DNA of 64,000 nt from Candidatus Latescibacterota bacterium (GTDB taxonomy: Bacteria; Latescibacterota; UBA2968; GCA-2709665). Shown here in pieces: positions 1-64,000 of this stretch. The stretch spans positions 1,920,001 to 1,984,000 of the forward strand of contig OZ241917.1 in the NCBI GenBank assembly GCA_965203805.1, written 5' to 3'. The notes under the pieces were generated by a model. That model did no database searches, had not been told where the DNA came from, and worked only from the letters and a program-made list of their open reading frames with translations. Position numbers and translations under genes: made by a program. The stretch's first letter is position 1, and each line of letters starts with the position of its first letter.

Positions 1-671
1 TGGGAATTGGTAGAAAGAGCCACGCGATACACAACATCCCATCTGGACGGTTCAAGGCGTCGCAATTCCATTATCTTCATCGGGTTTACCATAAGTACGA
101 AGACCTCGCCCAATCTACCCGTTAACACCCTGGTGGCATGTAGTAACCGTGTCGTGTCCACATGCTTCCCGGCTCTGTCATATCGGACAATCTGGCCATA
201 AGTTGAATCCAACAGGTACACCATACCCTGCGGGTCTATTGACATATAACGAGCACTGCCATATTCGCCTGGTCCGCGACCCTGACGACCGAAAGACTGG
301 ATATAGCGTCCGTCCGAAAGGTCAAACTCATGTGCTCTTTCACCAATCCGGTCGGTAAGCAGTAGAGTGTTATCCCGTGTCACACCTATCCAGTTTGCCT
401 CACCAATCCCAGGTGTTTTTTCGTTAAAGTCCAGACTAAATTGGCGCTTCAAATCAAGACCGATTTCGCCGATATATTCCAACTTCGTTTCGTGAATGGA
501 CTCTTCGTTGGCCTCGTGAGGCGAAGACTTCGAATACGTCTCCTTCGACTGGTCCGGCACTTGTGCAACCGCCCGGGCGTTTCCGGAAACAAGAACGACC
601 GTAAGTAAAAAAACAAAAAGACTGAACATTCTTTCCGTCCAATGACGTCCACCTAACGTGCTCTTCTTCAT
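1..671 (-). CDS. Secreted 6-bladed beta-propeller (NHL/TolB-like) protein, runs off the left edge (partial)
   Basis: Not in the ORF track; translated by hand. ATG at 671 preceded by GGAG, open to position 1: MKKSTLGGRHWTERMFSLFVFLLTVVLVSGNARA (signal-like)...LLLTDRIGERAHEFDLSDGRYIQSFGRQGRGPGEYGSARYMSIDPQGMVYLLDS... The GxxGxGPGEY and IDPQGMVYLLD motifs are typical NHL-like propeller blades. Confidence 0.8.
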   Translation of the reverse strand, partial: MKKSTLGGRHWTERMFSLFVFLLTVVLVSGNARAVAQVPDQSKETYSKSSPHEANEESIHETKLEYIGEIGLDLKRQFSLDFNEKTPGIGEANWIGVTRDNTLLLTDRIGERAHEFDLSDGRYIQSFGRQGRGPGEYGSARYMSIDPQGMVYLLDSTYGQIVRYDRAGKHVDTTRLLHATRVLTGRLGEVFVLMVNPMKIMELRRLEPSRWDVVYRVALSTNS

Positions 672-788
672 CGTGAACTCCTTTCGAATTTGTGCTGTGT
701 CATTGTGTAATGGTTATTTGCGTAACCATATTATAATACAATGACTTGTGTATGGAACCTACCTTTTCTACGAATTATTCAGGCTTAG

Positions 789-1087
789 TATGCATGACGT
801 CGCCGATACCCCAGCGACACAATTGGATTCTCACGTTCACCTTTTCTCCAACGGCGGCGGCCTTCCACTTTCAAAACACCGTTCGCCTCACGCATTACCT
901 CTCTCGAGGCCTGCTAAACCTTCACTCGCGTTACGGACTGTATACTTGCAAGTTGCCATGCGACCTATACACCGGGGGTTTAAGACAACTCGATGCTTTC
1001 CTGCCCGCTTTACTTGCTACCGACGGCGGCAACATTTGGCTGGTGCGACTCTCACCCACAAGAGTTCCGCGCCTTTTCACGGCGCAT
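789..1087 (-). mobile_element. Degenerate 5' fragment (domain I) of a bacterial group II intron; no RT ORF, no domain V/VI
   Basis: Minus strand reads ATGCGCCGTGAAAAGGCGCGGAACTC..GGGTGAGAGTCGCACC..GGTAGCAAG..CCGTAACGCGAGTGAAGG..AGCAGGCCTCGAGA..GGAAGGCCG..GGGGTATCGGCGACGTCATGC. This follows in order the conserved blocks I recall from bacterial group II intron 5' ends (GTGCGCCGTGAAA..GGCGC), with the first G mutated to A. Confidence 0.7.
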
Positions 1088-1158
1088 TGTTGTCGAATTA
1101 GGACTAATCAAACAATAATGTACGAGGAGACTCGGTTGATCGAGTTCTATAAGTAGCC

Positions 1159-2631
1159 TCACTCGGCATCACCTTGATTAACCAATCTTAGATTGTACCT
1201 CTCCTGCAACAGTTTCTTGTCCGTGTTTTGAATTTCTATACACATTTCCATGGCGAGTTCATAGCTATAACGGATCTGGTCGCACGAGACAGGGTTCGGA
1301 TTTATCGGGTCCCCAGTTGCAGTCCGGGCATCATATATACACCCCCCCCCACACAGGTTTCTTGCCCAGCAACGCCGGCAGTCGGAACGGGAATCGACAT
1401 GGAACGAATCTTTGAATCCATCCTGGACATTTTCGTCAAGACCAGAGAATACGTCGCCCATCTTAAACTCCGGCCGGTCGGCAAGACTTGAGCAAAAATA
1501 GATGTCGCCATCTACATCCACGGCCAGAAATGTCCTGCCGCCTTGACAGCCATAACAAGATTTCGCGCGAGTCATCAATCGTTCGATATAACGGTCGAAA
1601 AATCCTCTCTCGTGCGATCCTTCCAGAATTCTCTCCGTCTCCTGGCTGCTTAAACCGCGAAGTCTACGCTTTATTTCAGGCAGATGCTCCTCGCGAAGTG
1701 CATAAGGTTCTTCAGGTGCAGCAACGACAGGAGCCACTCTAACACGACATGCGCCAAGTTGCCTCAAATCATCAGCAATGGACTCCCTGTCCAGATTGTA
1801 CGAAGTCATTGTTGCGCGTACCGATACCTTATCCGGTGACTCTTTCGTCAATTTCAACAGGTTCTCGGCCACCACATTGTACGTTTCACTGCCATCTCGA
1901 AACTTCCGCAGTCGGTTTTGGTCTCTCGGGTTGCCATCGACACTAACCTGAATGTGAATTTCCTCATCAATCAGAAACTGTAAGATTTCATCCGAAATTA
2001 GAGTGCCATTTGTTGCGATTCCAAAAGAGACCTGAACCCCAACCCGATGGGCATACTCACGGGCAAAGGGAATGATATCTCGAATTAACTCGAAGTTCAG
2101 GAGCGGTTCCCCACCGAAAAAGTCTATCTGACACCTGCCGAACGAGCGAGCTTCACTCAGTGCCCATCGTACAGCCTGCCTTGCAACATGCGGCGTCATA
2201 AATCCCGGTACCCTTCCGTAGTCGCCGCCATGTGCGAAGCAATAGGTACATTTGACGTTACAGGCGTGCGAAACGTGTAACGTGATATAAAAATGACTCG
2301 CACCGGGCCCGGACTCTGGCAATCCGCAGATCCCTTGATCCGGCCCCTGTGAATCTGAATAAAGTTTCAGCGAGGCATCGTATATGAGCTGGGCTTCGGC
2401 AAGGACCTCAACTGCCTTTAACACGTCCTCGCCAGGAAATTCATCGGCCAATTTAAGAACGACTTCCTGGTCCGTTAGTCCGTCGCAAATCTTGAGGATC
2501 GACTCATAGAGCGGATCCAGTTCAAAGAACAGTCCCGTGTAAACCTGAAACGAAAAAGCACGTTTCGACTGGTATGTTCTGAAGAGATGCATATCAGATT
2601 TTGCGATTCGTACCACTTCCTCTGCCCCCAT
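1159..2631 (-). CDS. Radical SAM/SPASM peptide maturase with N-terminal RRE-like domain (CteB/PapB/QhpD ranthipeptide-maturase-like)
   Basis: CxxxCxxC (CNVKCTYC), FFGGEPLLN, ATNGTL and VSVDG motifs; SPASM CYGCQGG..DGDIYFC..CRRCWARNLCGGGC..C; N-terminal ~90-aa winged-helix-like RRE region. The ORF track start (2766) overlaps the peptide gene, so the likelier start is ATG 2631 (or 2592). Confidence 0.93.
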   Translation of the reverse strand: MGAEEVVRIAKSDMHLFRTYQSKRAFSFQVYTGLFFELDPLYESILKICDGLTDQEVVLKLADEFPGEDVLKAVEVLAEAQLIYDASLKLYSDSQGPDQGICGLPESGPGASHFYITLHVSHACNVKCTYCFAHGGDYGRVPGFMTPHVARQAVRWALSEARSFGRCQIDFFGGEPLLNFELIRDIIPFAREYAHRVGVQVSFGIATNGTLISDEILQFLIDEEIHIQVSVDGNPRDQNRLRKFRDGSETYNVVAENLLKLTKESPDKVSVRATMTSYNLDRESIADDLRQLGACRVRVAPVVAAPEEPYALREEHLPEIKRRLRGLSSQETERILEGSHERGFFDRYIERLMTRAKSCYGCQGGRTFLAVDVDGDIYFCSSLADRPEFKMGDVFSGLDENVQDGFKDSFHVDSRSDCRRCWARNLCGGGCIYDARTATGDPINPNPVSCDQIRYSYELAMEMCIEIQNTDKKLLQERYNLRLVNQGDAE

Positions 2632-2657
2632 TACCCAACAAACAACCAACCGACATA

Positions 2658-2876
2658 CTATTGGGCTGACTGCTTTTCCTGTGGAGTGAGTCCATTCTGT
2701 GATTTTTCGATTGACGCCACGATTGTCATTGGAGGGGGCAGAATAGGGAACCACGGCCATACGCATACCAACGCTTCAATAGGAGTCGTCGATCCAAAGC
2801 ATCCGTGAATTCTTCCCCTATTGTCGGAAACACCGTTGATCAAGTACAGGGAAGGTTCGGGATTACTATGTGCCAT
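2658..2876 (-). CDS. Putative RiPP precursor peptide, 72 aa
   Basis: AAGGAGG RBS 6 nt before ATG 2876; lies 26 nt upstream of the rSAM/SPASM gene and downstream of a sigma54-like promoter. Sequence MAHSNPEPSLYLINGVSDNRGRIHGCFGSTTPIEALVCVWPWFPILPPPMTIVASIEKSQNGLTPQEKQSAQ. Confidence 0.8.
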   Translation of the reverse strand: MAHSNPEPSLYLINGVSDNRGRIHGCFGSTTPIEALVCVWPWFPILPPPMTIVASIEKSQNGLTPQEKQSAQ

Positions 2877-2971
2877 TATCGTCCTCCTTGCCCGTTCAGC
2901 TTTGCGCGTCTCTATACTACAATGGAGATCAAACACGTGGCGCCAATTCCATCATGCAATTAGTAGGATAT

Positions 2972-2987
2972 TGCAAACCACGTACCC
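2972..2987 (-). promoter_or_regulatory. sigma54 (RpoN) -24/-12 promoter for the peptide/rSAM operon
   Basis: Minus strand GGGTACGTGGTTTGCA versus consensus TGGCACG-N4-TTGCW. Invariant GG and GC are exactly 10 nt apart; the site is adjacent to a sigma54 activator gene. Confidence 0.75.
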
Positions 2988-2988
2988 G

Positions 2989-3022
2989 AAAAACAAAAAA
3001 CGCTTGTGTGAGACCACAAGCG
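2989..3022 (-). terminator. Rho-independent terminator after the kinase/sigma54-activator gene
   Basis: Perfect 8-bp inverted repeat CGCTTGTG-N6-CACAAGCG (3001-3022) followed on the minus strand by TTTTTTGTTTTT. Confidence 0.65.
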
Positions 3023-3252
3023 AAATAATTACAATGATTTATTTATTTGTTTTTCTTTTTTATTCCCGACGAGAGTCCGTTCTTAAATTGTATTCATTGT
3101 ATACAGAACTCTTCCTATGTGAAAGGTACGCGTAAATTCAAACGAACAAAACCTTAAAATACAATACTTTAAATTCTGTCCAACGCCGTCTACACTACTT
3201 TAGGATCGATGCGCAAGCTATCTACGCTGATGGCGAGGCTTCATCGTGCGAC

Positions 3253-6200
3253 TCAACGCAGACCATAACGCGTCATCATCTTCTGAAGTCCATTTCGGCT
3301 GAGACCCAAATGAGCGGCAGTATGAGAAATGTTGCCCTTGCATTTGTCAAGTGCCGCGGCTATCATCCTTTTTTCAAGGGCAGCCACCTCCGATTTTAGA
3401 TGTCCTCGCGAACCTTGTTCGGCGTCTTGACGATGTTCAATCCTCTTCGAGAATAGATCGACGGAAACCTTCTTTCCTTCTTCAACCAACGCAACCGCGC
3501 GTCTTATCTCATTCTGCAATTCACGGACATTGCCCGGCCACGCGTGATCCATTAATCCCCGCATTGCCCCCACTGTAAGGCCCAGTACTTCCTTTCCCTG
3601 CTCCGAAGAAACACGCTTCAGTATATGCTCTGACAACGAAGGGATGTCCTCAATACGGTCACGCAGTGGAGGCATTTCAATCTGTAAAACGCGCAGCCGG
3701 TAATACAAGTCCTCCCGAAAAAGACCGGCACGCACGTCCGCTTCCAGGTCGCGATTCGTCGCTGCAATCACCCGAACGTCTACGTGGCGAACATTAGTCT
3801 CTCCTACTCGCTGTGTCTCCCCATCCTGCAGTACGCGCAACAGGCTTATCTGCAATTGCGAAGAGGCATCCCCGATTTCATCCAGAAACACGGAACCGCC
3901 CTCCGCGGAGGCGAATAGTCCCTTGCGGTCGGATGAAGCCCCGGTGAATGAGCCTCTTTTGTGACCGAACAGCTCGCTCTGAAGCAGTTCGTGGGTAAGC
4001 GCCCCGCAATTTGCGGAGAGAAAGGGTTTCGCCTTGCGGTTGCTCCGGGTATGGATAGCCCGGGCGGCCAGTTCCTTCCCCGTTCCCGTCTCACCCTGTA
4101 TAAGCACAGTCATGTCGCTTTCAGCCGCCACGTCGACCAGTTTGAACACTTCCTGCATCACCTGACTCTGTCCGATAAGTTCTCCCATTCGGTAGGTGCC
4201 CTCGTATTTTTCCTGGAAAAAAAGTGCCTGCTCCTGGATCCGGGAGAACATCCGGGCGTTGACAACCGCAATGGAGGCCAAATTCGCAAATGCCGCAAAC
4301 AAGGCTGTGTCTTCTTCGCGAAACAAATCTTCTAGCTTTCTATGGTCCAAATACAGCGCGCCGATGACACCCGATTCCGCATGCCGCAGTGGAACGCAAA
4401 GCACCGATCGGATGCCGTAGGCCGAAACGCTGGCCCTTTTTCTGAATCGATCGTCAACGCGGGCATCCAGACTCAATACGGGCTCGCACTGCTGCATCGA
4501 CCACCTGATTATTCCCTCGCTGATCTCCCTTGCTGCTAAATCATCCAGATTATACTTACGCGCAACCTTGACGCGACCGGCTGCCCCATCCTCGATAGCA
4601 ATCAAAACACGTTCGGCATGGCTCACCTTCTTCAGTCGGTCCAGAATTCGATCAAGTAGCACATTCAGGTCCAAGACCGACGTCAAGTCTTCGGATACTT
4701 CATAAAGGGTCTGCAGATGCTCTTGGGAAAGCGCCGTAACCTTCGCCTCTGGTGTTATAGTCATCGCAGTTTCCTCAATAACCAGGTTTAGGAGATCCGC
4801 TGCCTTTCGGGCCAGATAACGCAGATTCAAGCGTTCGGCAGCCTGAAGGGCGTTTTCCAGGTGCCGCCGGGCATCGGCATGACGCCGTCGCTCAACATAA
4901 TAACTGCCCGCTACAACCAACAGATTTACCTGTTCAAAACCGTCAGGCGAACCCTGTGTGTCCGATGCATGATCAATCAGGGAATCGACTTCTTCATGAC
5001 GGTCGGCCGCAACAAGCGATTTTGCCTTTGCAGTCCATGCAAGGGCGCGGACATTCCCGCCGTACTCTACACCCGGCCAAGCCCGTTCGGCCCAGGCCAG
5101 CGCCTCTTCGACACGGCCGGTTTGCGCCAATGTCTCGGCAAGCAACGCATGAGCCCGGCACATTTCATCGGGACTTTCGGCACCCGACAGAAGCCCCACC
5201 GCGGCACTCGCGTGGGCCTCTGCAGCCTCGGTATCTCCACGTTCCAGGACAATCCTGCCCAAATACACGAGTGATCCTGCTTCCGCAAGTCTCGAACCGC
5301 GTTTGGCCCAAAAATCCTTAAGTTCTAAGAAAATCTCCTCGGCCCGATCGAAATTTCCCAGCCGATTCTCTGCACGTCCCAAAAGGAAAAGACAGTTATG
5401 GCGATAAGTGCGATCGCCGTTATTCTCCAGTAGATTCAATGAAGAATCCAGGAGCTTTTTCGATCTGTCATTAAGATAGGTAAACTGCGCCGCAAACCCG
5501 AGATGCATCAAAGCGCGTGCTTCGTTGATAGACCCTCCCATTTCGCGACATTTCGCGGCGGCTAATTGACTATATCTCGCAGCAACCTCTTTTTTATTCA
5601 GCGCTACGTAGAGATTAGACAACAAACCCAAAACCCTAAGTTCATTCTCGGCCTCGCCCTGATTCCGCAAGAGTTCCAGCGCTTCTAACAACATCGACTC
5701 AGCTCTTTGGTAGTCCCCGCCATTCACGCAGGTAATTCCCAAAATCCTCAACACATTCGCCCTTTGCGCGGGCATTTCGACGGACGCCCACTGCAGGGCC
5801 CCTTCCATCTCCCGGCGGGCGTCCTCGTACCTGTCGCATCCGCATAGCGCTTCGGAGTAAGCGCAGAGAAAGTCGAGATGCATCACGGACCCCCTTGCAA
5901 ATCCGACGGGCGCATCGGGCGAGAGCGCGCCTTTTTTGAGAACAGTTCGGAACTGTTTGAGTGCGTACGAGAAATATTGCATCCCCAATGCCTTGCGGCC
6001 GGATTCTGTCACGTACAGCGCCATTTTTTCAAGGTCGTTCGACCTCGAAAAGTGATAGGCCAATTCATCCAGTGACTCAGCGGCGCCGCAATCCAACCGT
6101 TTCTCTAAGGCCCTGCCTGCCTCCTGGTGAAGAAACGTACGTTGGCTTTCGGAAATGCCTTCATAAACGGCCCGCCGAATCAGTCCATGTGAGAACCGAT

Positions 6201-8139
6201 AACGTCCACTCGGTTCTTGCAAATCTTCCAAATGGCCCAGGTTGACGTTCGTATCCAGCTTCTCTAGTAAATCCAGTTCATCCTTGCACCAGACCTCTGA
6301 AATCAGCTCGAACGAAAACGCACCGCGAAAGATCGAGGCATATTCCAGCACCTGCCGTTGGGACGACTGCAGCCGTCCCAGACGCAACTCGATTGCCTGC
6401 ATAATGCCCGTGGGCATCGGCCATTCGGTTGACTTCGGCCAATTCCAATTGCCTGCCGAATCCTTCCAGATTGAGCCGTCCGCAATAGCTCCTCGAACCA
6501 TTTCTACGATAAACAGTGGATTTCCCCCAGTTTCCAGGAAGACCCTCCGAGCTTCTTCCTCGGAGACCACCTGCTCTCCAAGCAGGGACGCAGCCAGACA
6601 CCCAGTTTCGTCCATACGGAGAGGCTGGAGATGAAAATGTACAATTCGAGTTCCATCTGACCCATTTGTCAGGTCGTCGATTCCCGGGGGTAGCGGATCT
6701 TCGTCCACAGTGCGGCAGGCGAGCCCGAAGATGAGAGGTGCGGGATCAGGATTTCTCCTCGTAAAGTCAAGGAACCGCAGGGTCAAGTCATCGGCCCACT
6801 GCAGGTCTTCAATGCATACAAGGGTGGGCGCTTCCCGGCTCAGATCGACGAGCAGTTCCGACAAAGTCTCCATCGCCGGGTACGGATCCGGCTGATCGGC
6901 GGGCACCGGACGTTCGATTTGCGTTAGAACCCGCCTGACGGATGCTTCGAGGTCCGAACCTCTAATGTCGGGCAGTTCCGCCATATCCCTCAGCATTTCA
7001 AGAAATGGACCAAAGGCTTGGCCGCCGCTCTCATAACAACGTCCTGTTTGTACGCGCATCCCGTTAACGCGGGCGTCGGCCTTAAATTCTTCGAGAACTT
7101 GCGTCTTCCCGATGCCAGCACTCCCGCTAACGAGAATCATGTGCCCAATACACTCGCGAGTATCCTGCAGGATCTTCCACAGAGCCTTCATCTCTTGTTG
7201 CCGACCCTGGAACTGGGGTTGCAAAAATGGAACGTCCGTGGTACCCAAGACAGGCAGCATTGTGACGGTAGCTTCGTCGCAGTATTCATGGAATCCGCTT
7301 GCCTCGTTAATCGTCAAATCATAGAGCAAGCTCCCAACCGAACTGTACCGGTCAATCGGCTCCTTCTTGAGAAGCTTCATTACTGACTCTTCGATTCCCG
7401 AGGAATTTTCGCCGGCAACAAGGTGCGGAGGACAAGGTAATTCTTGCAAATGCTTAGTCAATATTGTCGCCGGATCTGTTCCCGTGAACGGTGGATTCCC
7501 GGAGAGAATCTCGTAAAGAATGACTCCCAATGAATAAAGGTCGGATCGCTGGTCAACTCCCCGGCCCCGAATCTGTTCGGGAGACATGTACTCCAAGGTC
7601 CCCGTAGCTGCTTCCGGAGGCTGCAGGCGTTCATCCGCAGCATCTTTAAATCGCGCCAGACCCAAGTCCAGAATCGTAACCTCGGGTTGGCCGTCATTTT
7701 CTGAAATAATGATATTGGAGGGTTTAAGATCTTTGTGTATTACACCAAGTTCATGGATGTATGCAAGCCCCTCACCAGTCTGCCGGACAAACGGAACGAG
7801 CCACGCGGATTTTAGTTTCCCGCGGTATTCTGCGCTTGAAATCAGGTCAGACAGTGGATGACCCTGGACATAATCCATCGAAAAATACGGTCTCCCGTCG
7901 TGAAGGCCCCACCTGCGTGAAACTACAATTCGAGGATGTCGGATCCGAGACAGGATATCAAACTCCCTCAGAAATCGCCTTTGCGCCACTTCCCCAGAGA
8001 TATTCAACACCTTAAGCGCTACAATGGAGTCTTCCCGGACGTCCCGCGCGCGATATACGATTCCTATACCTCCGTTTCCGACCGTATCCAGGATCTTGTA
8101 TCGTCCGTCGACAACCATTCCAGTCTCTATTTCGGCCAT
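3253..8139 (-). CDS. Multidomain Ser/Thr protein kinase - AAA/STAND ATPase - TPR - GAF - sigma54-dependent activator - Fis HTH (1628 aa)
   Basis: Kinase: [43 protein letters not shown]. ATPase: [20 protein letters not shown]-like helical repeats. GAF: [15 protein letters not shown]. bEBP: [47 protein letters not shown]-terminal [17 protein letters not shown]. Confidence 0.95.
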
Positions 8140-8441
8140 AGTAGTTAACCTGAGGAAAAATGACTCGCGTCTAGCGAACCTGGTTCGTTCACGTTCCGTC
8201 TAAAAACAAACCGGAGTTTGATCGCGGATACCTTCGTCCCTATCGTCGAGTATAGCGATCTGTGTGGCTCGACGAGCCATTAAAGAAGCAACGTTCAAGC
8301 CCTCCGACCCCGCTACCGAATTGGTTGGGGGATGGTTGGTCTCACCGCTGACAGCCGAGGGCTGAAGGCATTCCTACAGGAAACTCCATTGAAACTCGCC
8401 GAGGGCGGTTACCCCGCAGTCTGATTTGCAAGCCTGGATCA

Positions 8442-9600
8442 TTACGGGTTCCATCGGTCCGCCGGATCCTCCCACAATTCCCGAAAGTCATTCATTCCGA
8501 GGGGTACCAGTTCACACGACGAAACCGATGGCTGTAAGCAGTTACACCCCGTCCTACCAACCGTTACGTTTTGGACTGTTCCTCGTGCAGGATTTCCTGC
8601 AGCCTGCGGTAGAGTGAAATTCTCCGTTCAGCGTCAAGGGTACGGCGTTATCGATCAAGAATCCGGTCCGCATCTTCATTCTCGAAACACGGATAATTCC
8701 TGCTGTCTTTGACCTGCGACGAATGCCAGCTTGCCCTCAGATCGAGGGGAACGGCGGAAAGGCTTCCTCCACCTGTAAATAACGCCTCGAACTCCTGCGT
8801 TCGCAGCCGATGCAGGTAAACGGAATATTCGATTTCTCGTACCTTGCAATCAACTCCCACATCCGCCAGTTCGTCCTGCAACACTACGCCGATGTACTTG
8901 CTGACTTGAGAACCGACCGGTACCAGGAATTCGAACCTGAATACGGTTTTGACGCCGTCCACAGCCCGATCCAGAACGCCGTCGCCGTAGGTATCGAACG
9001 AGCCAGCCGCCTGGAGCAATTCTGCGGCCCGATCGCGGTCGTATTCGAGAGATTCCAAGCCGGCGTGAAATTCCGGACAGGACAAATGAATGGGCCCGTC
9101 GATGTTAGCGCCAAGTCAATGGATCAGATCTCGAATAATGCTCTTGCGCGGCGTCAGATGAGCCATCGATCGGCGGACCCGTTTATCGCGAAATATCGGT
9201 TGGGCAATGTTCCATGCGATGTAATTGATACCGCTTGCGTATCGGATGACCTTGAAGCTGAACAAGATGTCCGCCGGGGTCACCGACCTGCCATCCGAAA
9301 AACGGGCGTCTTCGCGAATGTCGAACGTATTCGAAAGCTTGTCAGCGGACGCCACGGAATAAACGGCCGCCAGTTTTCCCTTGAATTGGTATGGCGGCAT
9401 GTTCTCCATTAATATCAAATTCTCGAACATGTGCTCTAGGATTCTGTGTGAACCATAGTCCATATTTCCATACGGATTGAGCGTTGCCGGCTCCGAACAA
9501 CGCGTGGAGAACCAGCTAGTCTCCATAAACAGGGCTTTCATTCCCTTCGTGCCTCGCCAGCACCTTCTCGGTCCCGTCGAGCACCATCAACCCATGATTC
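8442..9600 (-). pseudogene. Decayed ABC transporter family-5 (peptide/nickel) solute-binding protein
   Basis: Fragments GD*LVLHAL/SEPATLNPY, F.DGRSVTPADILFSF, YIAWN..PIFRDKRVRRSM, FDTYGDGVLDR, QDELADVGVD and RRTLDAERRISLYRRLQEILHEEQ are split by stops and frameshifts, and the central region is deleted. The 5' boundary is approximate. Confidence 0.8.
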
Positions 9601-9768
9601 TTCGCCAGAATCTTCTCTACTCTCTTCTATATTCACCGGCACCAGCCTCTACACCGAAGAAGCTGGGAAATGCGTCAGAGCGAACAAGACCGTACTTGTA
9701 ATTGGTGTATTCAATGGATCCACCGATGATTGACAAGTTCAATCACTTTTGATCGCATGCTGCCAATT

Positions 9769-10776
9769 TCATCTAAACTGTAGTATTAACTCGCTCAAAT
9801 CCGCGATTTCGGTCTGTCGTAACCTCGTAGCATAGTCACGTAGAGCTGCAAGGAACCGGCGTTGGCGATCATCCAAGTGCAATTCCCGATATCGCATAAT
9901 GTGATCCCGAACGAATCCCAGGTCTCGGATAGTCTCTTCCACCAGCATTCGATTGGCTACGATCCAGGTGCGTTTCAATAGTGCCCGTAACACTTTGGTC
10001 GGGTCGTGTGGCGCTTCGGCCATTTCCGGCGATATTACATCCAAAGGGACTTCCCAATAGATTTTCTGCATTATGATTCGATGATATTCAAGGTGCTTGT
10101 CGTTCAAATGCGTTGTTTCGAACCGATCCTTTTCGCAACCCCGTAAGCCATCGTGTTTACGTACTCTTACCAACGGCTGGCGTAAAACGCCTGCCTTATA
10201 TCCAGCACGCGCGAGCCGGATCCACATATCGTAGTCCTGAGCGCGAATCAGCCTTTCATCGTAGATTCCCACCCGATCATAACACGCTTTGCGAACGACA
10301 ACTGAAACACCGCTGATGAAATTTCCGCTCAGGAGTTGACCCAGCATTTCTGCTTCCGGATGTGCGGTAGCCTCTACCGTCTCGATCACGTTGTCCGCGT
10401 CGTTTCCTTCAAAAAACGCGTATCCGCTATAGACGAACCCGACCTCGGGCTGCAATTCGAAAACCGATATGTGCGACTCTACCAGTTCAGGCAGCGCGAC
10501 GTCATCATCGTCAAAGACCCAGACATAGTTACCGGAGACGTGTTTGAGTCCTAGATTCAAGGCAGACGATTTGCCCCCGTTCGACTTTTCAGAGTACGAT
10601 ATTCGACCGAGAAATGGCTCCAACTTCGTCTTCGTTTCATCCGTCGACCCGTCATTGACTACGATTACCTCGAGATTTCGATACGTCTGTGCCAAAACGC
10701 TTTCGAGCGACTCAACCAGATAGTTCGCCCTGTTGTAAGTTGGAATGATGACGGAAACCAAGTCTTGATGGCTCAT
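9769..10776 (-). CDS. Glycosyltransferase family 2 (GT-A)
   Basis: VSVIIPTYNR, VVNDGSTD, FDDDD (DxD) and QDYDMWIRL motifs, plus a helical C-terminal extension. Confidence 0.92.
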   Translation of the reverse strand: MSHQDLVSVIIPTYNRANYLVESLESVLAQTYRNLEVIVVNDGSTDETKTKLEPFLGRISYSEKSNGGKSSALNLGLKHVSGNYVWVFDDDDVALPELVESHISVFELQPEVGFVYSGYAFFEGNDADNVIETVEATAHPEAEMLGQLLSGNFISGVSVVVRKACYDRVGIYDERLIRAQDYDMWIRLARAGYKAGVLRQPLVRVRKHDGLRGCEKDRFETTHLNDKHLEYHRIIMQKIYWEVPLDVISPEMAEAPHDPTKVLRALLKRTWIVANRMLVEETIRDLGFVRDHIMRYRELHLDDRQRRFLAALRDYATRLRQTEIADLSELILQFR

Positions 10777-10786
10777 GGTCAACACG

Positions 10787-10814
10787 AAAAACGCCCCCGG
10801 CGATACCGGAGGCG
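10787..10814 (-). terminator. Intrinsic terminator-like hairpin immediately upstream of the GT2 start
   Basis: Minus strand CGCCTCCGG-TATCG-CCGGGGGCG-TTTTT. Confidence 0.5.
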
Positions 10815-11473
10815 CGTTTGGAAAATGGACCTTGTGCGAAGTGCAGGCAAACGGTCGGTTCGGCTTACAAACTCCTCGGGAGATGACAATGCAAAGTCAG
10901 CATGGAAAGAATACCGCGAGCCGTCCAGCCTTTTCTCTGCAGCCCAGAACTCCTGTGTTTTCGATCTCTCGTTACAAGCATCGGGAATCGCACCCGTGCC
11001 AAAACCCTGATTAAACATAACGTCTACGTATGCTACTTACCCTTTATTTTGTAACCGCTGGCGTCCCTCAGGGAGCGTCTCCTTCACACCAACTCGATAC
11101 GTATCCGCCAGTCTGTGATTGAAAGCCTGCGGCTCAGTTTGCTCAATTTGATGGCACCGTGGGAACCAAGTCCGGCAGAATATAGGCCGTAAGGTTCGAA
11201 CTGTCAAGTACAGGTTAGGGAATATATGGCAGCGCCGGTTATTCAACAGAACCCGAGCGTTCCTGGGATTCTGACGGAAGACGACAACGGTCCGCTTTCG
11301 CAAGAAAACGGGCCGGGCGGAGCAGTTCATTTATCTAAGGCGAGGAATAACTAGACTGGATGCCGAATGGATGTGAGGTGCAGAATTGCACTGCATTGTA
11401 TGGGAAAGGCGTCCCACCCTTGGATCTCGCGGCCGGTATGCAATCAACCACGGTCGTCCGTCCTGACCCAGGT

Positions 11474-12110
11474 CTAGGGCACCCGGAGTATCCATCTTGT
11501 GATCATGCGCGGCGACTCGAGCGCCGGATCAAGTATGACATGACCCTTGGTGAGACTCTCCCGGCAGGATTCGACCTGCAGCGCGCCATCGCGGTGACGT
11601 TCGGCAAGAAAACCGATCCACTTGAACACTGAGGGGTTTCCGAGACGTGCGGCATAGCTGAGAAGCGCGTCTTCGTCGCGGTTATTGCAGGAAAGGTACG
11701 CCGACAATCAGTCGACAACGTGCTGGATTTCTCCGCCCAGGACCGGATCATCCAGAATGTCGGCCATCTTGCGTTGGATGTTGGAGACGACGAACCCGCC
11801 TTTGCCGCACCAGATTGCCCTGGTCTCGAAAATCCTGCCTTCGTCGATATGTTTCAGACTGAACCGTTTGCCGTGGAGTCACGGGGATTTCTTGCGACAC
11901 CAGGGAAACAATGTCGTTGAAAGTCTGCTCGGTAAGGTCCCAGTGCTCCACGGCACAGCGCTCTCAGACATAGGCCGGATCGAAAAAGCAGAGTGCAAGA
12001 ATCCAAGGATAACAAAGTCCTAATATTCACCCCTTGGTCACCAGCAAATATACCCAGTCTTCTCTCCTGAACACGTTAGTCCCTTTCTGTAAAGATATCG
12101 TCCCGCCAAC
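11474..12110 (-). pseudogene. Frameshifted type IV toxin-antitoxin AbiEi-family antitoxin
   Basis: Fragments in different frames: PWILALCFFDPAYV*..EHWDLTEQTFNDIV; VVSNIQRKMADILDDPVLGGEIQHV; YAARLGNPSVFKWIGFLAE..LTKGHVILDPAL..ITRWILRVP. These match AbiEi antitoxin motifs. No intact AbiEii toxin follows; the 5' boundary is approximate. Confidence 0.75.
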
Positions 12111-30345: not shown

Positions 30346-30683
30346 CGGACCGCACCGCTGTGGAGAATGGGTCAAGATACGCGCCACCGGCCCGATGATC
30401 AACGGTTTTGTGACCGCATGTATCCTGACAGCCCATGTCCCTCCTGATAGGGGTTGACTTGCGGTTCCGGCCCAGCTATCATACCGCCCGGCGGCCCCCA
30501 CCAGTCCGTTGGAAAAGTCGCTCTGCAGGCGAGGCCGAGTCATTGTGGCCGAAGACAAGGCGCGCGACCGACGCGAATCCCTGGATTCGGGGAGGGAGCG
30601 CAACGCTGTATTTCGGTCACAAGGGCCGGACGCAGCCCGGATGGACTTTATCAACGGGCTGCTACGCCACGGAGGAGCATTCC

Positions 30684-52232: not shown

Positions 52233-52535
52233 CGCTCGCCCTCCTGCGGTATGGTTGTCGAGGGAGACTAACTTTGATTCGTCATTTTTCGGTGACGTTA
52301 AACCGAATATACGCAAGTTGATAAAGGCGATTTAACGTGGGATTTCCAGGATATTTCAGGTCTCTGTACGTGAACACAAAAAGTGTCCCTTTCGACGACG
52401 TCTTCGGCCCAGTCTGGAAGGATTGTCGCGTCGCTGCTATTGTCGAACCAAGGCCAAATCTGTCGTCGAATCGGTGAATCGTCTGGTGATTGGCTGGAAA
52501 GGCCGTCAATGTACGAGGTTTCGGGTCTCAGGGAC

Positions 52536-63326: not shown

Positions 63327-64000
63327 TCAGGGAATCTGTCTATTTGCAGCGAAAGCCGTGCCATAGTGCAGTGCACGTCCCGCGTGGCTTTGGACCCGGA
63401 GCGCTTCAAGAATGATGGCCTGCACACGCCGGGCTACCTCAACCGCGTCGTGCCGCTGAACCGCCGAGACGCGGGCGGCCTCACCCATCCGCTGTCGCAA
63501 TCTCCGGTTCTCGACCACCCTGAGGATGGTGTCGGCAAGCCCGGCGGCGTCGTTCGGCGCCACCAGGAATCCGTTGTAACCATGCCGGATCAATTCAGGC
63601 ACACCGCCTGTATCGGACCCCACCACCGGTGTGCCCAGTGCCAGAGACTCGATAACGCTTCGCGGACAGGGGTCGGGCGCAGAAGAAGGAACGAGTGTGA
63701 CATCCATGTCCTTCAGGAACGGTCTGACGTCGGTCTGAAATCCTGTAAAGTGGACACGACCTGAAAAGCGGCCGTTTGCGACCTTGCGGCGATAGCGGTC
63801 CAGCAGGTCCAATGACCGGCGAGGGCTGCCACCGACAACCACCAGCACCACGTCCTTGCGCCGGACCAGGACCTGCTCCATCGCCGCCAGCAGCGTGTCG
63901 ATGCCTTTCCACGCAACGATACGACCGACGAAGCCCAGAACCACTTCGTCCGGTCCGATCCGGTACATCCGGCGCACGCACCCCCGGACGCCGGCAGGGT
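63327..64000 (-). CDS. Glycosyltransferase family 4 (GT-B), 5' part outside window
   Basis: GFVGRIVAWKG, FTGFQTDV and PDPCPRSVIESLALGTPVVGSDTGGVPE motifs; frame open to 64000. Confidence 0.92.
   Translation of the reverse strand, partial: PAGVRGCVRRMYRIGPDEVVLGFVGRIVAWKGIDTLLAAMEQVLVRRKDVVLVVVGGSPRRSLDLLDRYRRKVANGRFSGRVHFTGFQTDVRPFLKDMDVTLVPSSAPDPCPRSVIESLALGTPVVGSDTGGVPELIRHGYNGFLVAPNDAAGLADTILRVVENRRLRQRMGEAARVSAVQRHDAVEVARRVQAIILEALRVQSHAGRALHYGTAFAANRQIP

Follow-up and report, generated by a model that had tools for sequence, protein, structure and literature searches.

The open reading frame at positions 2658 to 2876 of the window, as we call the whole 64,000-nucleotide stretch of Candidatus Latescibacterota DNA analysed here, is best explained as encoding the precursor of an undescribed family of radical-SAM-modified RiPPs from Latescibacterota. 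The peptide is very probably the genuine substrate of the radical SAM enzyme encoded next to it. The fuller account, in which this precursor is placed under the control of a neighbouring activator, is bound through its leader by the RRE of the maturase and receives a thioether at Cys38, is one that we hold with slightly better than even confidence. The family is not described in the literature that we consulted on Latescibacter radical SAM RiPPs, ranthipeptides and sigma-54 links; the supplementary tables of a compendium of 15,000 radical SAM enzymes (PMC10288494) may list it.

The precursor gene

The precursor gene and its translation start are laid out as follows.

2658..2876, (-) strand: precursor peptide gene, 72 aa (coding 2661-2876, stop 2658-2660)
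About residues 1-24 of the peptide: leader, with L10-x-L-I-N14-G15 and G21-R-I
About residues 25-49 of the peptide: core, with C38-V-W40-P41-W-F43-P-I-L-P-P-P
Residues 50-72 of the peptide: tail, polar and variable
2883..2889, (-) strand: Shine-Dalgarno sequence AAGGAGG, 6 nt before the ATG at 2876

The sequence-only reading had the ORF, its 72-aa translation and the residue numbering right (P8, SLYLING at S9-G15, G25, C26, E34, C38, W40, W42, FPILPPP and a polar tail). The ORF can also be read in a longer form that begins at a GTG at 2936; we prefer the ATG at 2876 because the Shine-Dalgarno site and all orthologues favour it. Loci of the sister subfamily described below share the layout of AAGGAG followed by ATG with the window peptide gene.

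The window peptide has no Pfam match and no NCBIfam match at E<=0.1. Comparison between genomes shows that the ORF is a conserved gene and not a chance ORF, because it has a paralogous pair in its own genome, linked peptide ORFs in other loci, 273 profile matches and orthologues of 72 residues. The second peptide/radical SAM pair (G000:C1:3888093-3889773) encodes a peptide that is 38% identical to the window peptide (E 2.3e-8) and an enzyme that is 60% identical to the window enzyme. In related loci, the radical SAM homologue is preceded by small ORFs that share the leader and have one Cys, and a length of exactly 72 residues is found in 4/4 close orthologues, the window peptide included. An alternative explanation is that the ORF is an untranslated but conserved 5' leader of the radical SAM mRNA and that the substrate of the enzyme lies elsewhere. 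In favour of this, conservation between G000 and G002 is lower in the ORF than anywhere else in the locus. However, the ORF has a strong Shine-Dalgarno sequence, the frame and its 72-codon length are retained in all four orthologues, hundreds of relatives have an open frame of 55-75 codons in which amino acid motifs are conserved while the DNA varies, the core has a dN/dS of 0.28 (calculated over few sites), and the search of window positions 1-12000 against Rfam gave no family match. We consider the untranslated leader very improbable and continue with a translated precursor.

A profile built from 20 upstream peptides matched 273 unannotated small proteins at E<=0.01 in a collection of 5.8 billion proteins; among the best 120 of the 273, none has a Pfam domain and the sole name given is 'hypothetical protein'. 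The full HMMER scan returned 21 clusters (50% identity) at E<=0.001. Only one close relative is named, a Candidatus Latescibacterota MAG, and parts of the window DNA occur in sponge metagenome runs. A scan of genome contigs was dominated by SCIFF maturases; of the 80 loci retained from it, one was a close relative.

Conservation of the peptide

We analysed a set of 136 peptides, composed of the best 120 of the 273 profile matches and the loci examined. What is conserved across the family is the leader L-x-L-I-N-G ... G-x-I, one cysteine, corresponding to C38, and a Pro-rich block. The ING motif of the leader is the most conserved part, with N14 invariant in a 20-row alignment. The core cysteine is present in 136/136 peptides, a count biased towards Cys-bearing members as the profile includes the Cys column; it lies 21-26 residues from the leader Asn, and 118/136 peptides have exactly one Cys after this Asn. 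Exceptions are a distant relative, L107/L128, which has Gly at the Cys position and a Cys only at the C-terminus, and the representative match P0195, which is without any Cys.

In the LPPP-type subfamily, to which the window peptide belongs, C-x-W-P-x-[FW]-x-x-L-P-P-P is found in 15/15 peptides, so that W40-P41 and an aromatic residue at 43 are always kept. In 120 peptides of the large sister subfamily the Cys, V-P and P-F-P are invariant, and the most variable positions are Cys+1 and Cys+4 to +6. Near the Cys, only Pro is conserved across both subfamilies.

The sequence-only reading had pointed to five residues whose conservation should be checked. C38 held family-wide and W40 throughout the window's subfamily, but the other three did not hold: position 26 is Cys in 8/15 subfamily peptides and Tyr in 4, position 34 is Glu in 7/15 and Lys in 5, and position 42 is Trp in 3/15. 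In the sister subfamily the column that matches position 26 in the 20-row alignment is mostly Tyr (83%), and in the own-genome paralogue Tyr and Lys occupy the positions equivalent to 26 and 34. Because of these counts, the combination of two cysteines with a WPW motif, which had been read as the signature of the core, is, by alignment, the look of a narrow lineage of 4 orthologues (the window's own included) and not a property of the family. Within this lineage the motif GCFGSTTPIE is fully conserved, and the G002 orthologue, whose ORF is 85% identical overall, nevertheless has zero substitutions in G25-A35 and in W40-P44.

The radical SAM/SPASM maturase

The enzyme is encoded directly downstream of the precursor gene and belongs to the SCIFF/PapB/QhpD clade.

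1159..2631, (-) strand: radical SAM/SPASM peptide maturase, 490 aa from the ATG at 2631 (alternative start ATG 2592)
2383..2535, (-) strand: putative PqqD-like RRE region, residues 33-83 (15.5 bits, sub-threshold)
2239..2262, (-) strand: radical SAM cluster motif C124-x3-C128-x2-C131, invariant in an 11-row alignment
1282..1557, (-) strand: SPASM region, with C359, C362, C380, C418, C421, C427, C431 and C450 (auxiliary Fe-S clusters)

The Pfam Radical_SAM match scores 60.1 bits. The Pfam SPASM score of 19.8 bits is slightly under the cut-off of 21.5; the alignment to CteB spans the SPASM region. Seven of the eight SPASM cysteines do not vary in the 11-row alignment, and the eighth, C359, is retained in at least 90%. 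The PqqD-like match of the window maturase (E 0.023) is likewise under its Pfam cut-off of 23.4, whereas the own-genome paralogue reaches 21.7 bits and the relatives P0137 and P0138 reach 24.4 and 34.8 bits; PF05402 is annotated on 12/65 homologues.

The proposal of a RiPP precursor with a radical SAM/SPASM maturase from the thioether-forming clade was borne out. The best NCBIfam matches are the SCIFF maturase (TIGR03974, 247.9 bits versus a cut-off of 425), the maturase of the Nif11 system (TIGR04064, 244.3 versus 518.7), PapB (NF047865, 239 versus 340) and QhpD (TIGR03906, 228.7 versus 453), and the best relative of solved structure is CteB (5WGG; E 5.1e-58 over residues 32-453). Second among the solved relatives comes the anaerobic sulfatase maturase (E 1.4e-19; NCBIfam 104.4 bits). 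Models for cyclophane maturases score far lower (darobactin 59.7 bits versus a cut-off of 650, dynobactin 97.4 versus 450), and there are weak matches to the cyclophane-forming SPASM enzymes YhhB (75.6 bits) and FxsB (61.4 bits). The maturase thus falls short of the curated cut-offs of all named maturase families, and it may catalyse a reaction that none of them does.

Nature of the modification

We propose that the RRE of the maturase would bind the leader through L10-x-L-I-N14-G15 ... G21-R-I, and that the enzyme would then make one intramolecular thioether that joins Cys38 to a C-H carbon of a downstream residue, a few positions away, in C-x-W-P-x-F...LPPP. The resulting small ring would display a loop of variable sequence on a Pro-rich scaffold that is constant. 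QhpD, PapB and CteB are homologous and RRE-using enzymes according to parts of PMC13692751, where PapB and QhpD are also described as forming radical thioethers to non-alpha carbons with the leader bound by the RRE. In the same paper the acceptor of ranthisynthases lies 3-4 residues beyond the Cys, also in non-acidic motifs like CPLVL, and PMC10288494 presents KgrA as a sactipeptide precursor with a single Cys. As judged from sequence comparison, a thioether at C38 has about an even chance of being the modification; sequence alone does not single out the acceptor residue.

The bridges first suggested for this peptide involved a second cysteine and a glutamate, either as a C26-E34 link in a QhpC-like GC...P..E motif or as an E34-x3-C38 link. 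In such a ranthipeptide with two bridges, C26 and C38 would both be linked to acceptors such as E34, as in the Cys-Glu link of QhpC, and both would be essential. The conservation of GCFGSTTPIE in the four closest orthologues, the 33 coding nucleotides of this stretch that are without substitution relative to G002, and the presence in the enzyme clade of QhpD, which parts of PMC13692751 describe as the maker of Cys-Glu and Cys-Asp links, all speak for this explanation. However, neither bridge can define a family in which Cys26 and Glu34 each occur in about half of the subfamily, in which the sister subfamily mostly has Tyr for Cys26, and in which the paralogue with Tyr and Lys at these positions is served by an enzyme 60% identical to that of the window. 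This non-conservation suggests that such a link is at most a lineage-specific extra, and we give two essential bridges a small chance. In the single-thioether proposal, C26 and E34 would add at most a second link, and only in the narrow lineage.

A cross-link on the aromatic residues was also considered, either of the C-C (cyclophane) type or of another kind on Trp40, Trp42 or Phe43, with the Cys acting as a cluster ligand or recognition residue. The invariance of W40 and of an aromatic residue at 43 within the subfamily is in keeping with it, as are the weak YhhB and FxsB matches. The W-x-W form in which a cyclophane was originally suggested does not survive the finding that position 42 is rarely Trp; moreover, Trp is found at Cys+4 of the sister subfamily in only 49/136 peptides, some cores have no aromatic residue before P-F-P, and thioether-forming maturases are matched three to four times as strongly. 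The chance of such a cross-link appears smaller still than that of two essential bridges.

Anaerobic sulfatase maturases oxidise Cys to formylglycine on C-x-P-x-R, and the Pro found at Cys+2 in 93/136 peptides recalls the C-x-P of sulfatases. It could be that the enzyme alters Cys38 itself without forming a ring, by conversion to formylglycine, epimerisation or another change of a side chain, and the rank of the anaerobic sulfatase maturase among the solved relatives and its NCBIfam score are compatible with this possibility. However, the C-x-W-P of the window's subfamily puts the Pro at +3 and not at +2, Arg at +4 is not the rule, and the enzyme resembles SCIFF, PapB and QhpD maturases far more than it does sulfatase maturases. 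A ring-free change of the Cys is therefore improbable, and the single thioether at Cys38 remains the modification that we favour.

Promoter and regulator

Upstream of the precursor gene lie the following features.

2972..2987, (-) strand: sigma-54 type -24/-12 promoter element GGGTACGTGGTTTGCA, 96 nt upstream of the ATG
2991..3022, (-) strand: intrinsic-terminator-like hairpin (stem 3001-3022) with a T-run, which would end the regulator transcript just before the sigma-54 promoter
3089..3105, (-) strand: inverted repeat TGTAT-N7-ATACA, candidate upstream activator site
3253..8139, (-) strand: 1,628-aa regulator, upstream of the peptide and co-oriented
Regulator, N-terminal part: Ser/Thr kinase 14-265, STAND AAA_16 309-470, TPR about 790-1110
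Regulator, C-terminal part: GAF 1157-1292, sigma-54 AAA+ 1321-1488, Fis-type HTH 1586-1625

The operon of peptide and radical SAM enzyme is predicted to depend on sigma-54: it has a GG/GC element, an rpoN gene is present in the genome, and an enhancer-binding protein is encoded next to it. The search of the 64 kb for the element, with at most one mismatch, gave 2 matches versus 1.27 expected by chance, one of them being that at 2972..2987. A sigma-54 element lies <=160 nt upstream of the peptide in 15/21 related loci, compared with a background of 0.036 per 160 nt in the rest of these loci; in the other 6/21 loci it was not found by the patterns used. The layout of a hairpin followed by the promoter is also present in 5/5 aligned sister-subfamily loci. 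The inverted repeat at 3089..3105 is identical in the G002 orthologue, and TGTATC...ATACA-like palindromes recur upstream in sister-subfamily loci; we infer that this repeat is a candidate binding site of the sigma-54 activator. In the proposed mechanism the activator would switch on the peptide-radical SAM operon through the sigma-54 promoter.

Assignment of the locus to a known anti-phage system was rejected, as PADLOC gave only generic domain matches to kinase, sigma-54 AAA+ and viperin-like radical SAM domains.

The three-gene module

The order of a giant kinase/STAND/TPR/GAF/sigma-54 activator, the peptide and the radical SAM enzyme, with the activator co-oriented, was found in 17/17 loci examined. 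A genome carries two to three of these modules in complete form, and every module has a regulator of its own; between modules the enzymes are 87-94% identical and the peptides 58-81%. Two species with a background identity of 78-86% were compared: the enzyme and the output half of the regulator are 97-99% identical, whereas the peptide gene and the kinase/STAND/TPR half of the regulator are only 81-92% identical. A diversity-generating retroelement was considered as the source of the divergence of the peptide gene and rejected, there being no adenine bias (12/50 changes at A).

Downstream of the maturase is a gene outside the conserved module.

3..671, (-) strand: secreted-looking 6-bladed beta-propeller (DUF5128), cut by the window edge

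The downstream genes vary between loci, and no conserved protease or exporter was seen in the loci examined, which suggests that the product may stay attached to its leader or rely on unlinked genes.

The modified peptide may be a signal for the neighbouring activator, sensed by the TPR/STAND or GAF domains in the cell or after release, and the activator would in turn drive the operon that encodes the peptide. This would be a closed, pherotype-like circuit of peptide and receptor, duplicating and diversifying as a three-gene unit. The constant gene order, the multiple modules, the greater divergence of the peptide than of the enzyme, the variable loop between invariant blocks and the divergent sensor half of the regulator all fit such a circuit, to which we give a low but appreciable chance.

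Comparison with known systems

The SCIFF system (CteA/CteB, PDB 5WGG/5WHY) is similar in having a radical SAM/SPASM enzyme with an N-terminal peptide-binding domain, which is the closest relative by both structure and NCBIfam match, and a small precursor encoded directly upstream of the enzyme. SCIFF cassettes are not known to have a conserved protease or exporter, and the cassette in the loci examined here is compact in the same way. The SCIFF-like leader first suggested for the window peptide did not withstand profile comparison: homology to 18 SCIFF precursors was undetectable by hhalign (probability 0.07%, E 0.67), and the resemblance that is left is only the short leader motif of a basic residue, a hydrophobic residue, x, T/L, [LI] and N. 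The systems also differ in that there is one conserved Cys here versus six in SCIFF, the window peptide having two Cys of which one is conserved, in the Pro- and aromatic-rich core, in the score of the maturase well under the SCIFF cut-off, and in the place of the window maturase in a quick tree, where a branch with 100% SH-aLRT support divides it from 15 SCIFF maturases. Furthermore, the named relative comes from Latescibacterota and not from Bacillota, and a dedicated sigma-54 activator is attached here.

The pairs PapB/PapA and QhpD/QhpC share the enzyme clade, but the window maturase scores below both cut-offs and the peptide is without the repeated C-x3-D/E. The neighbours examined included no gene for a quinohemoprotein amine dehydrogenase, and the family does not conserve Glu34. 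The Nif11-leader radical SAM system differs in that the enzyme scores less than half the cut-off and no Pfam family matches the precursor. The darobactin and triceptide cyclophanes are set apart by the scarcity of Trp at position 42 and by maturase models far under their cut-offs.

Enteropeptin represents a single-Cys radical SAM thioether peptide type. The window peptide is like the KgrA/enteropeptin type in being a precursor with a single conserved Cys that is handled by a radical SAM enzyme (for KgrA, as given in a part of PMC10288494), but taxon, leader and core are apparently unrelated, a distinction that we draw from the description of that type and not from a sequence comparison.

For the regulator, the closest parallel is the TOMM kinase/cyclase fusion (TIGR03903), a model named for its link to RiPP clusters, which matches the STAND/TPR part (residues 311-721) at 250.1 bits; both are giant kinase/STAND/TPR sensors beside a RiPP cassette. 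The match is under the cut-off of 705.75, and the output here is formed by GAF, sigma-54 AAA+ and HTH domains, not by a cyclase.

Significance

These findings define a previously unannotated precursor family with hundreds of members from a largely uncultured phylum. The hypervariable loop lies between a single conserved Cys and a rigid Pro-rich block, an arrangement that may provide a simple scaffold for work on peptide cyclisation, and the position of the maturase outside every curated family means that the reaction may be new. In a survey of sponge Latescibacterota, 'ranthipeptide' clusters are listed with the statement that their function is unknown (PMC12993501). The strict coupling of the family to a kinase/STAND/TPR/GAF/sigma-54 activator would offer a testable handle on the purpose of such RiPPs.

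The peptide gene and its signals

The claim of the sequence-only reading that the window encodes a precursor peptide is borne out: the peptide is a true precursor, belonging to a family with a conserved leader and Cys and with a radical SAM/SPASM enzyme encoded next door. The residue numbering used there (P8, SLYLING 9-15, G25, C26, E34, C38, W40, W42, FPILPPP) is correct. The gene and its surroundings comprise the following features.

1159-2631, minus strand: radical SAM/SPASM protein (rSAM), 490 aa
2658-2876, minus strand: ORF of the 72-aa peptide, opened by the ATG at 2876
6 nt ahead of ATG 2876, minus strand: AAGGAGG (Shine-Dalgarno sequence, SD), upstream of the peptide ORF
2972-2987: -24/-12 element upstream of the peptide, a sigma-54-type promoter pattern
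3001-3022: terminator-like hairpin just ahead of the promoter, ending the regulator transcript
3089-3105: TGTAT-N7-ATACA, the window's counterpart of palindromes in sister loci
63348-63363, minus strand: sigma-54-like element TGGCACGGCTTTCGCT, the window's only other match at ≤1 mismatch

A mechanically listed longer ORF for the enzyme (start 2766) runs into the peptide ORF. When N-termini are compared across relatives, conserved enzyme sequence starts near ATG 2631, possibly 2592, so that the peptide gene ends shortly before the enzyme gene begins. The -24/-12 element is one of only two matches in the 64-kb window, with 1.27 expected by chance; in 15 of 21 related loci the 160 nt ahead of the peptide contain such an element, against a background rate of 0.036 per 160 nt in the remainder of those loci. 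Five aligned sister loci repeat the order of hairpin, promoter, SD and ATG, with TGTATC...ATACA palindromes before it, and the window's genome has one copy of rpoN. No Rfam family matches the 488-nt gap between the rSAM stop and the start of a beta-propeller gene (672-1158), nor is any ORF supported there; the gap is 90-95% identical to the same-genus genome G002.

A module with a giant regulator

The peptide gene is a conserved small gene with clear signals, tied to a radical SAM/SPASM enzyme and a sigma-54 activator. In all 17 loci with long flanks the regulator (about 1,600 aa), the peptide and the rSAM follow one another on a single strand. The regulator combines Ser/Thr kinase, STAND AAA_16, TPR, GAF, sigma-54 AAA+ and Fis HTH domains, and its STAND/TPR part resembles the 'TOMM system kinase/cyclase fusion' model, with a score below the cut-off. 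We infer that it activates the sigma-54-type promoter ahead of the peptide.

The genes downstream of the rSAM differ by locus (glycosyltransferases, an AraC-type regulator, a UvrD-type helicase, a second SPASM enzyme, a 300-aa protein), and no protease or exporter recurs in the 17 loci. The protein of about 300 aa follows the rSAM in six of them (L120:9450-10355 and five other sister-subfamily loci); it has no match in Pfam or NCBIfam, and by eye a G-S-G-P-S stretch resembles a methyltransferase SAM-binding motif. Upstream of the regulator, seven of the 17 loci share the window's GT2 cluster. Two adjacent short minus-strand ORFs in the window correspond to the two ends of a family-5 solute-binding protein, 8648-9085 to its C-terminal part (profile 263-363) and 9116-9541 to its N-terminal part (profile 4-47). 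Together they look like the remnant of a decayed gene, lying between the regulator and the GT2 glycosyltransferase (9769-10785).

Extent of the family

The window's own genome, G000, contains a second complete module (G000:C1:3886813-3891273; locus L006, also L116): a sigma-54 activator, a 67-aa peptide, an rSAM and then a GT4 glycosyltransferase, with its own TGGCATG-N4-TTGCT element. Its peptide is 38% identical to that of the window (E 2.3e-8), with Tyr and Lys at the places of C26 and E34, and its enzyme is 60% identical. The rSAM has matches at E≤1e-40 in 26 of 61 related genomes, and at E≤1e-90 in 24 of 168 genomes of the phylum, all within three families of one class. Among 80 loci kept by the scan, the single named close relative is a Candidatus Latescibacterota MAG; the maturases of the other 79, mostly from Bacillota and many with SCIFF precursors, are 27-36% identical.

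Small ORFs sharing the window peptide's leader were found upstream of rSAM homologues. A profile of 20 such peptides matched 273 proteins at E≤0.01; the best 120 carry no Pfam domain and no name other than 'hypothetical protein'. Scanning 1.84 billion cluster representatives in full with HMMER gave 21 clusters at E≤0.001, of which three are long repeat proteins unrelated to the family. The leader part of peptide profile A2 (positions 6-23) also matches the first strand-turn-strand of all five scavenger-receptor cysteine-rich (SRCR) domains of the repeat protein P0203 (L-R-L-V-N-G ... E-G-R-I-E-I-Y). This likeness is curious, as the bacteria are seen in sponge metagenomes, and probably reflects a common beta-hairpin pattern.

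Conservation of the peptide

In the 20-row MAFFT alignment, which splits the Cys column by one position between the two subfamilies, N14 and one Pro are the sole invariant columns, and L10, G15, D18, G21 and two further Pro are nearly so. Counts anchored on the Cys cover 136 distinct peptides. All have a Cys 21-26 residues past the leader Asn, 118 have no further Cys beyond that Asn, and a P-x-x-P block, which the search pattern did not pick up in two, begins 5-8 residues past the Cys. In the sister subfamily (120 peptides) the leader, Cys, V-P, P-F-P and acidic D-rich tail are almost invariant, and variability is greatest at +1 and +4 to +6 past the Cys. All 15 LPPP-containing peptides of the window's own subfamily share C-x-W-P-x-[FW]-x-x-L-P-P-P. 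In more distant relatives the basic leader persists with [IV]-N, and their one Cys sits in an L-S-C setting ahead of aromatic and Pro residues. There are exceptions to the conserved Cys: at one distant locus Gly takes its place and a Cys occurs at the C-terminus, and one cluster representative has no Cys at all. Three other representatives look frameshifted.

Residues at three positions in the 15 window-subfamily peptides
Position 26: Cys 8, Tyr 4, other 3
Position 34: Glu 7, Lys 5, other 3
Position 42: Trp 3

The complete GCFGSTTPIE block occurs only in four close orthologues, including the window's own. Of the residues whose invariance was to be checked by profile, the core Cys (136 of 136) and W40 (15 of 15 in the window subfamily) hold, whereas C26, E34 and W42 vary. 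The Cys-Glu bridges of QhpC type and the WxW cyclophane proposed earlier draw on residues that are unconserved beyond a narrow lineage. The leader does share a short motif with SCIFF, as had been noted, but the likeness lacks statistical support.

The enzyme and its putative chemistry

Among 11 rSAM relatives, conservation covers the C124-x3-C128-x2-C131 motif and eight cysteines in the C-terminal part. The best NCBIfam matches of the window's enzyme all fall below cut-off: the SCIFF maturase (247.9 bits, cut-off 425), Nif11-peptide maturase (244.3, cut-off 518.7), PapB (239, cut-off 340) and QhpD (228.7, cut-off 453) models. The closest solved structure is CteB (5WGG, E 5.1e-58, residues 32-453). 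In a 75-row tree made with a quick method, 15 SCIFF maturases split off across a branch with 100% SH-aLRT support, and all 58 family enzymes, the window's included, form one set with 96% support. The sub-cut-off scores, the CteB match and the tree together place the enzyme in the thioether-forming clade but in none of its named families. Its PqqD-like (RRE) match is sub-threshold (15.5 bits); two relatives exceed the threshold, and such a match is on record for 12 of 65 close homologues. In three loci another SPASM enzyme, from the same broad clade and far more divergent, is encoded downstream of the family rSAM (L118:9551-11029, L119:10316-11704, L128:7932-9329); two of these were scanned against the QhpD model, with scores of 194.9 and 158.4 bits, and that of L118 is about 25% identical to the window's rSAM.

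CteB reportedly holds the substrate Cys on an auxiliary cluster. Going by the enzyme's clade and by PMC13692751, the RRE of the window's rSAM would bind the peptide leader, and the conserved Cys would be the sulfur donor of a single thioether, with the acceptor probably a few residues downstream. PapB-type and CrpC-type substrates place the Cys ahead of the acceptor, with CAVD and CPLVL among the motifs (PMC13692751), and KgrA is a precedent for a single-Cys rSAM thioether precursor (PMC10288494). Pro is the only residue near the Cys common to both subfamilies, and the sequence points to no particular acceptor.

Divergence within the module

A conserved enzyme serving a fast-evolving peptide is the usual RiPP pattern. 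The syntenic background of G000 and G002 is 78-86% identical, yet window 1-4800 is 97-99% identical, except for a tract at about 2560-2876 (84-89%) that takes in the peptide ORF, the spacer and about 24 codons at the start of the rSAM gene. The two genomes agree fully in promoter, SD and ATG, and elsewhere in the 5' UTR they differ by no more than a few changes plus a 9-nt indel immediately past the promoter. Substitutions in the peptide ORF begin at codon 3, spare G25-A35 and W40-P44, and show no adenine bias.

Divergence between G000 and G002
Peptide (few sites): dN 0.154, dS 0.20
rSAM: dN 0.022, dS 0.069
Regulator residues 1-1113 (kinase, STAND, TPR): dN 0.09-0.14, dS 0.34-0.43
Regulator residues 1114-1628 (GAF, AAA+, HTH): dN 0.003-0.011, dS 0.04

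The mosaic, seen in one genome pair, fits a peptide and a regulator sensor half that diverge together. In 55 pairs of sister-subfamily modules the difference runs in the same direction (enzymes 87-94% identical, regulators 78-88%, peptides 58-81%), and enzymes of paralogues within one genome are 93-94% identical. The 97-99% identity to G002 covers the beta-propeller, the rSAM and the GAF/AAA+/HTH half of the regulator, and the break between 1-4800 and 4800-9300 falls inside the regulator gene near residue 1113. The pattern points to a recent interspecies exchange of the 1-4800 segment, within which the peptide gene forms a divergent island. Elsewhere in the window, a MITE-like dispersed repeat of about 163 bp (30502-30664) matches the window's genome 42 times, at up to 98% identity, and G002 more than 40 times; a second repeat family near 52269-52438 has about 40 weaker copies in G002.

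Relation to known RiPPs

In the main-text literature searched, we found no description of the precursor family, the single-Cys core or the regulator. PMC12993501 lists antiSMASH 'ranthipeptide' clusters for sponge-associated Latescibacterota without further study, and these may be the present loci. Judged by homology, the peptide/enzyme pair appears to belong to the known rSAM/SPASM-modified RiPPs, with a putative thioether chemistry. Its unusual points differ from those singled out by the sequence-only reading: one conserved Cys, a variable loop framed by a rigid C-x-W-P...LPPP (or V-P-P-L-P-F-P) scaffold, and an obligatory giant kinase/sigma-54 regulator.
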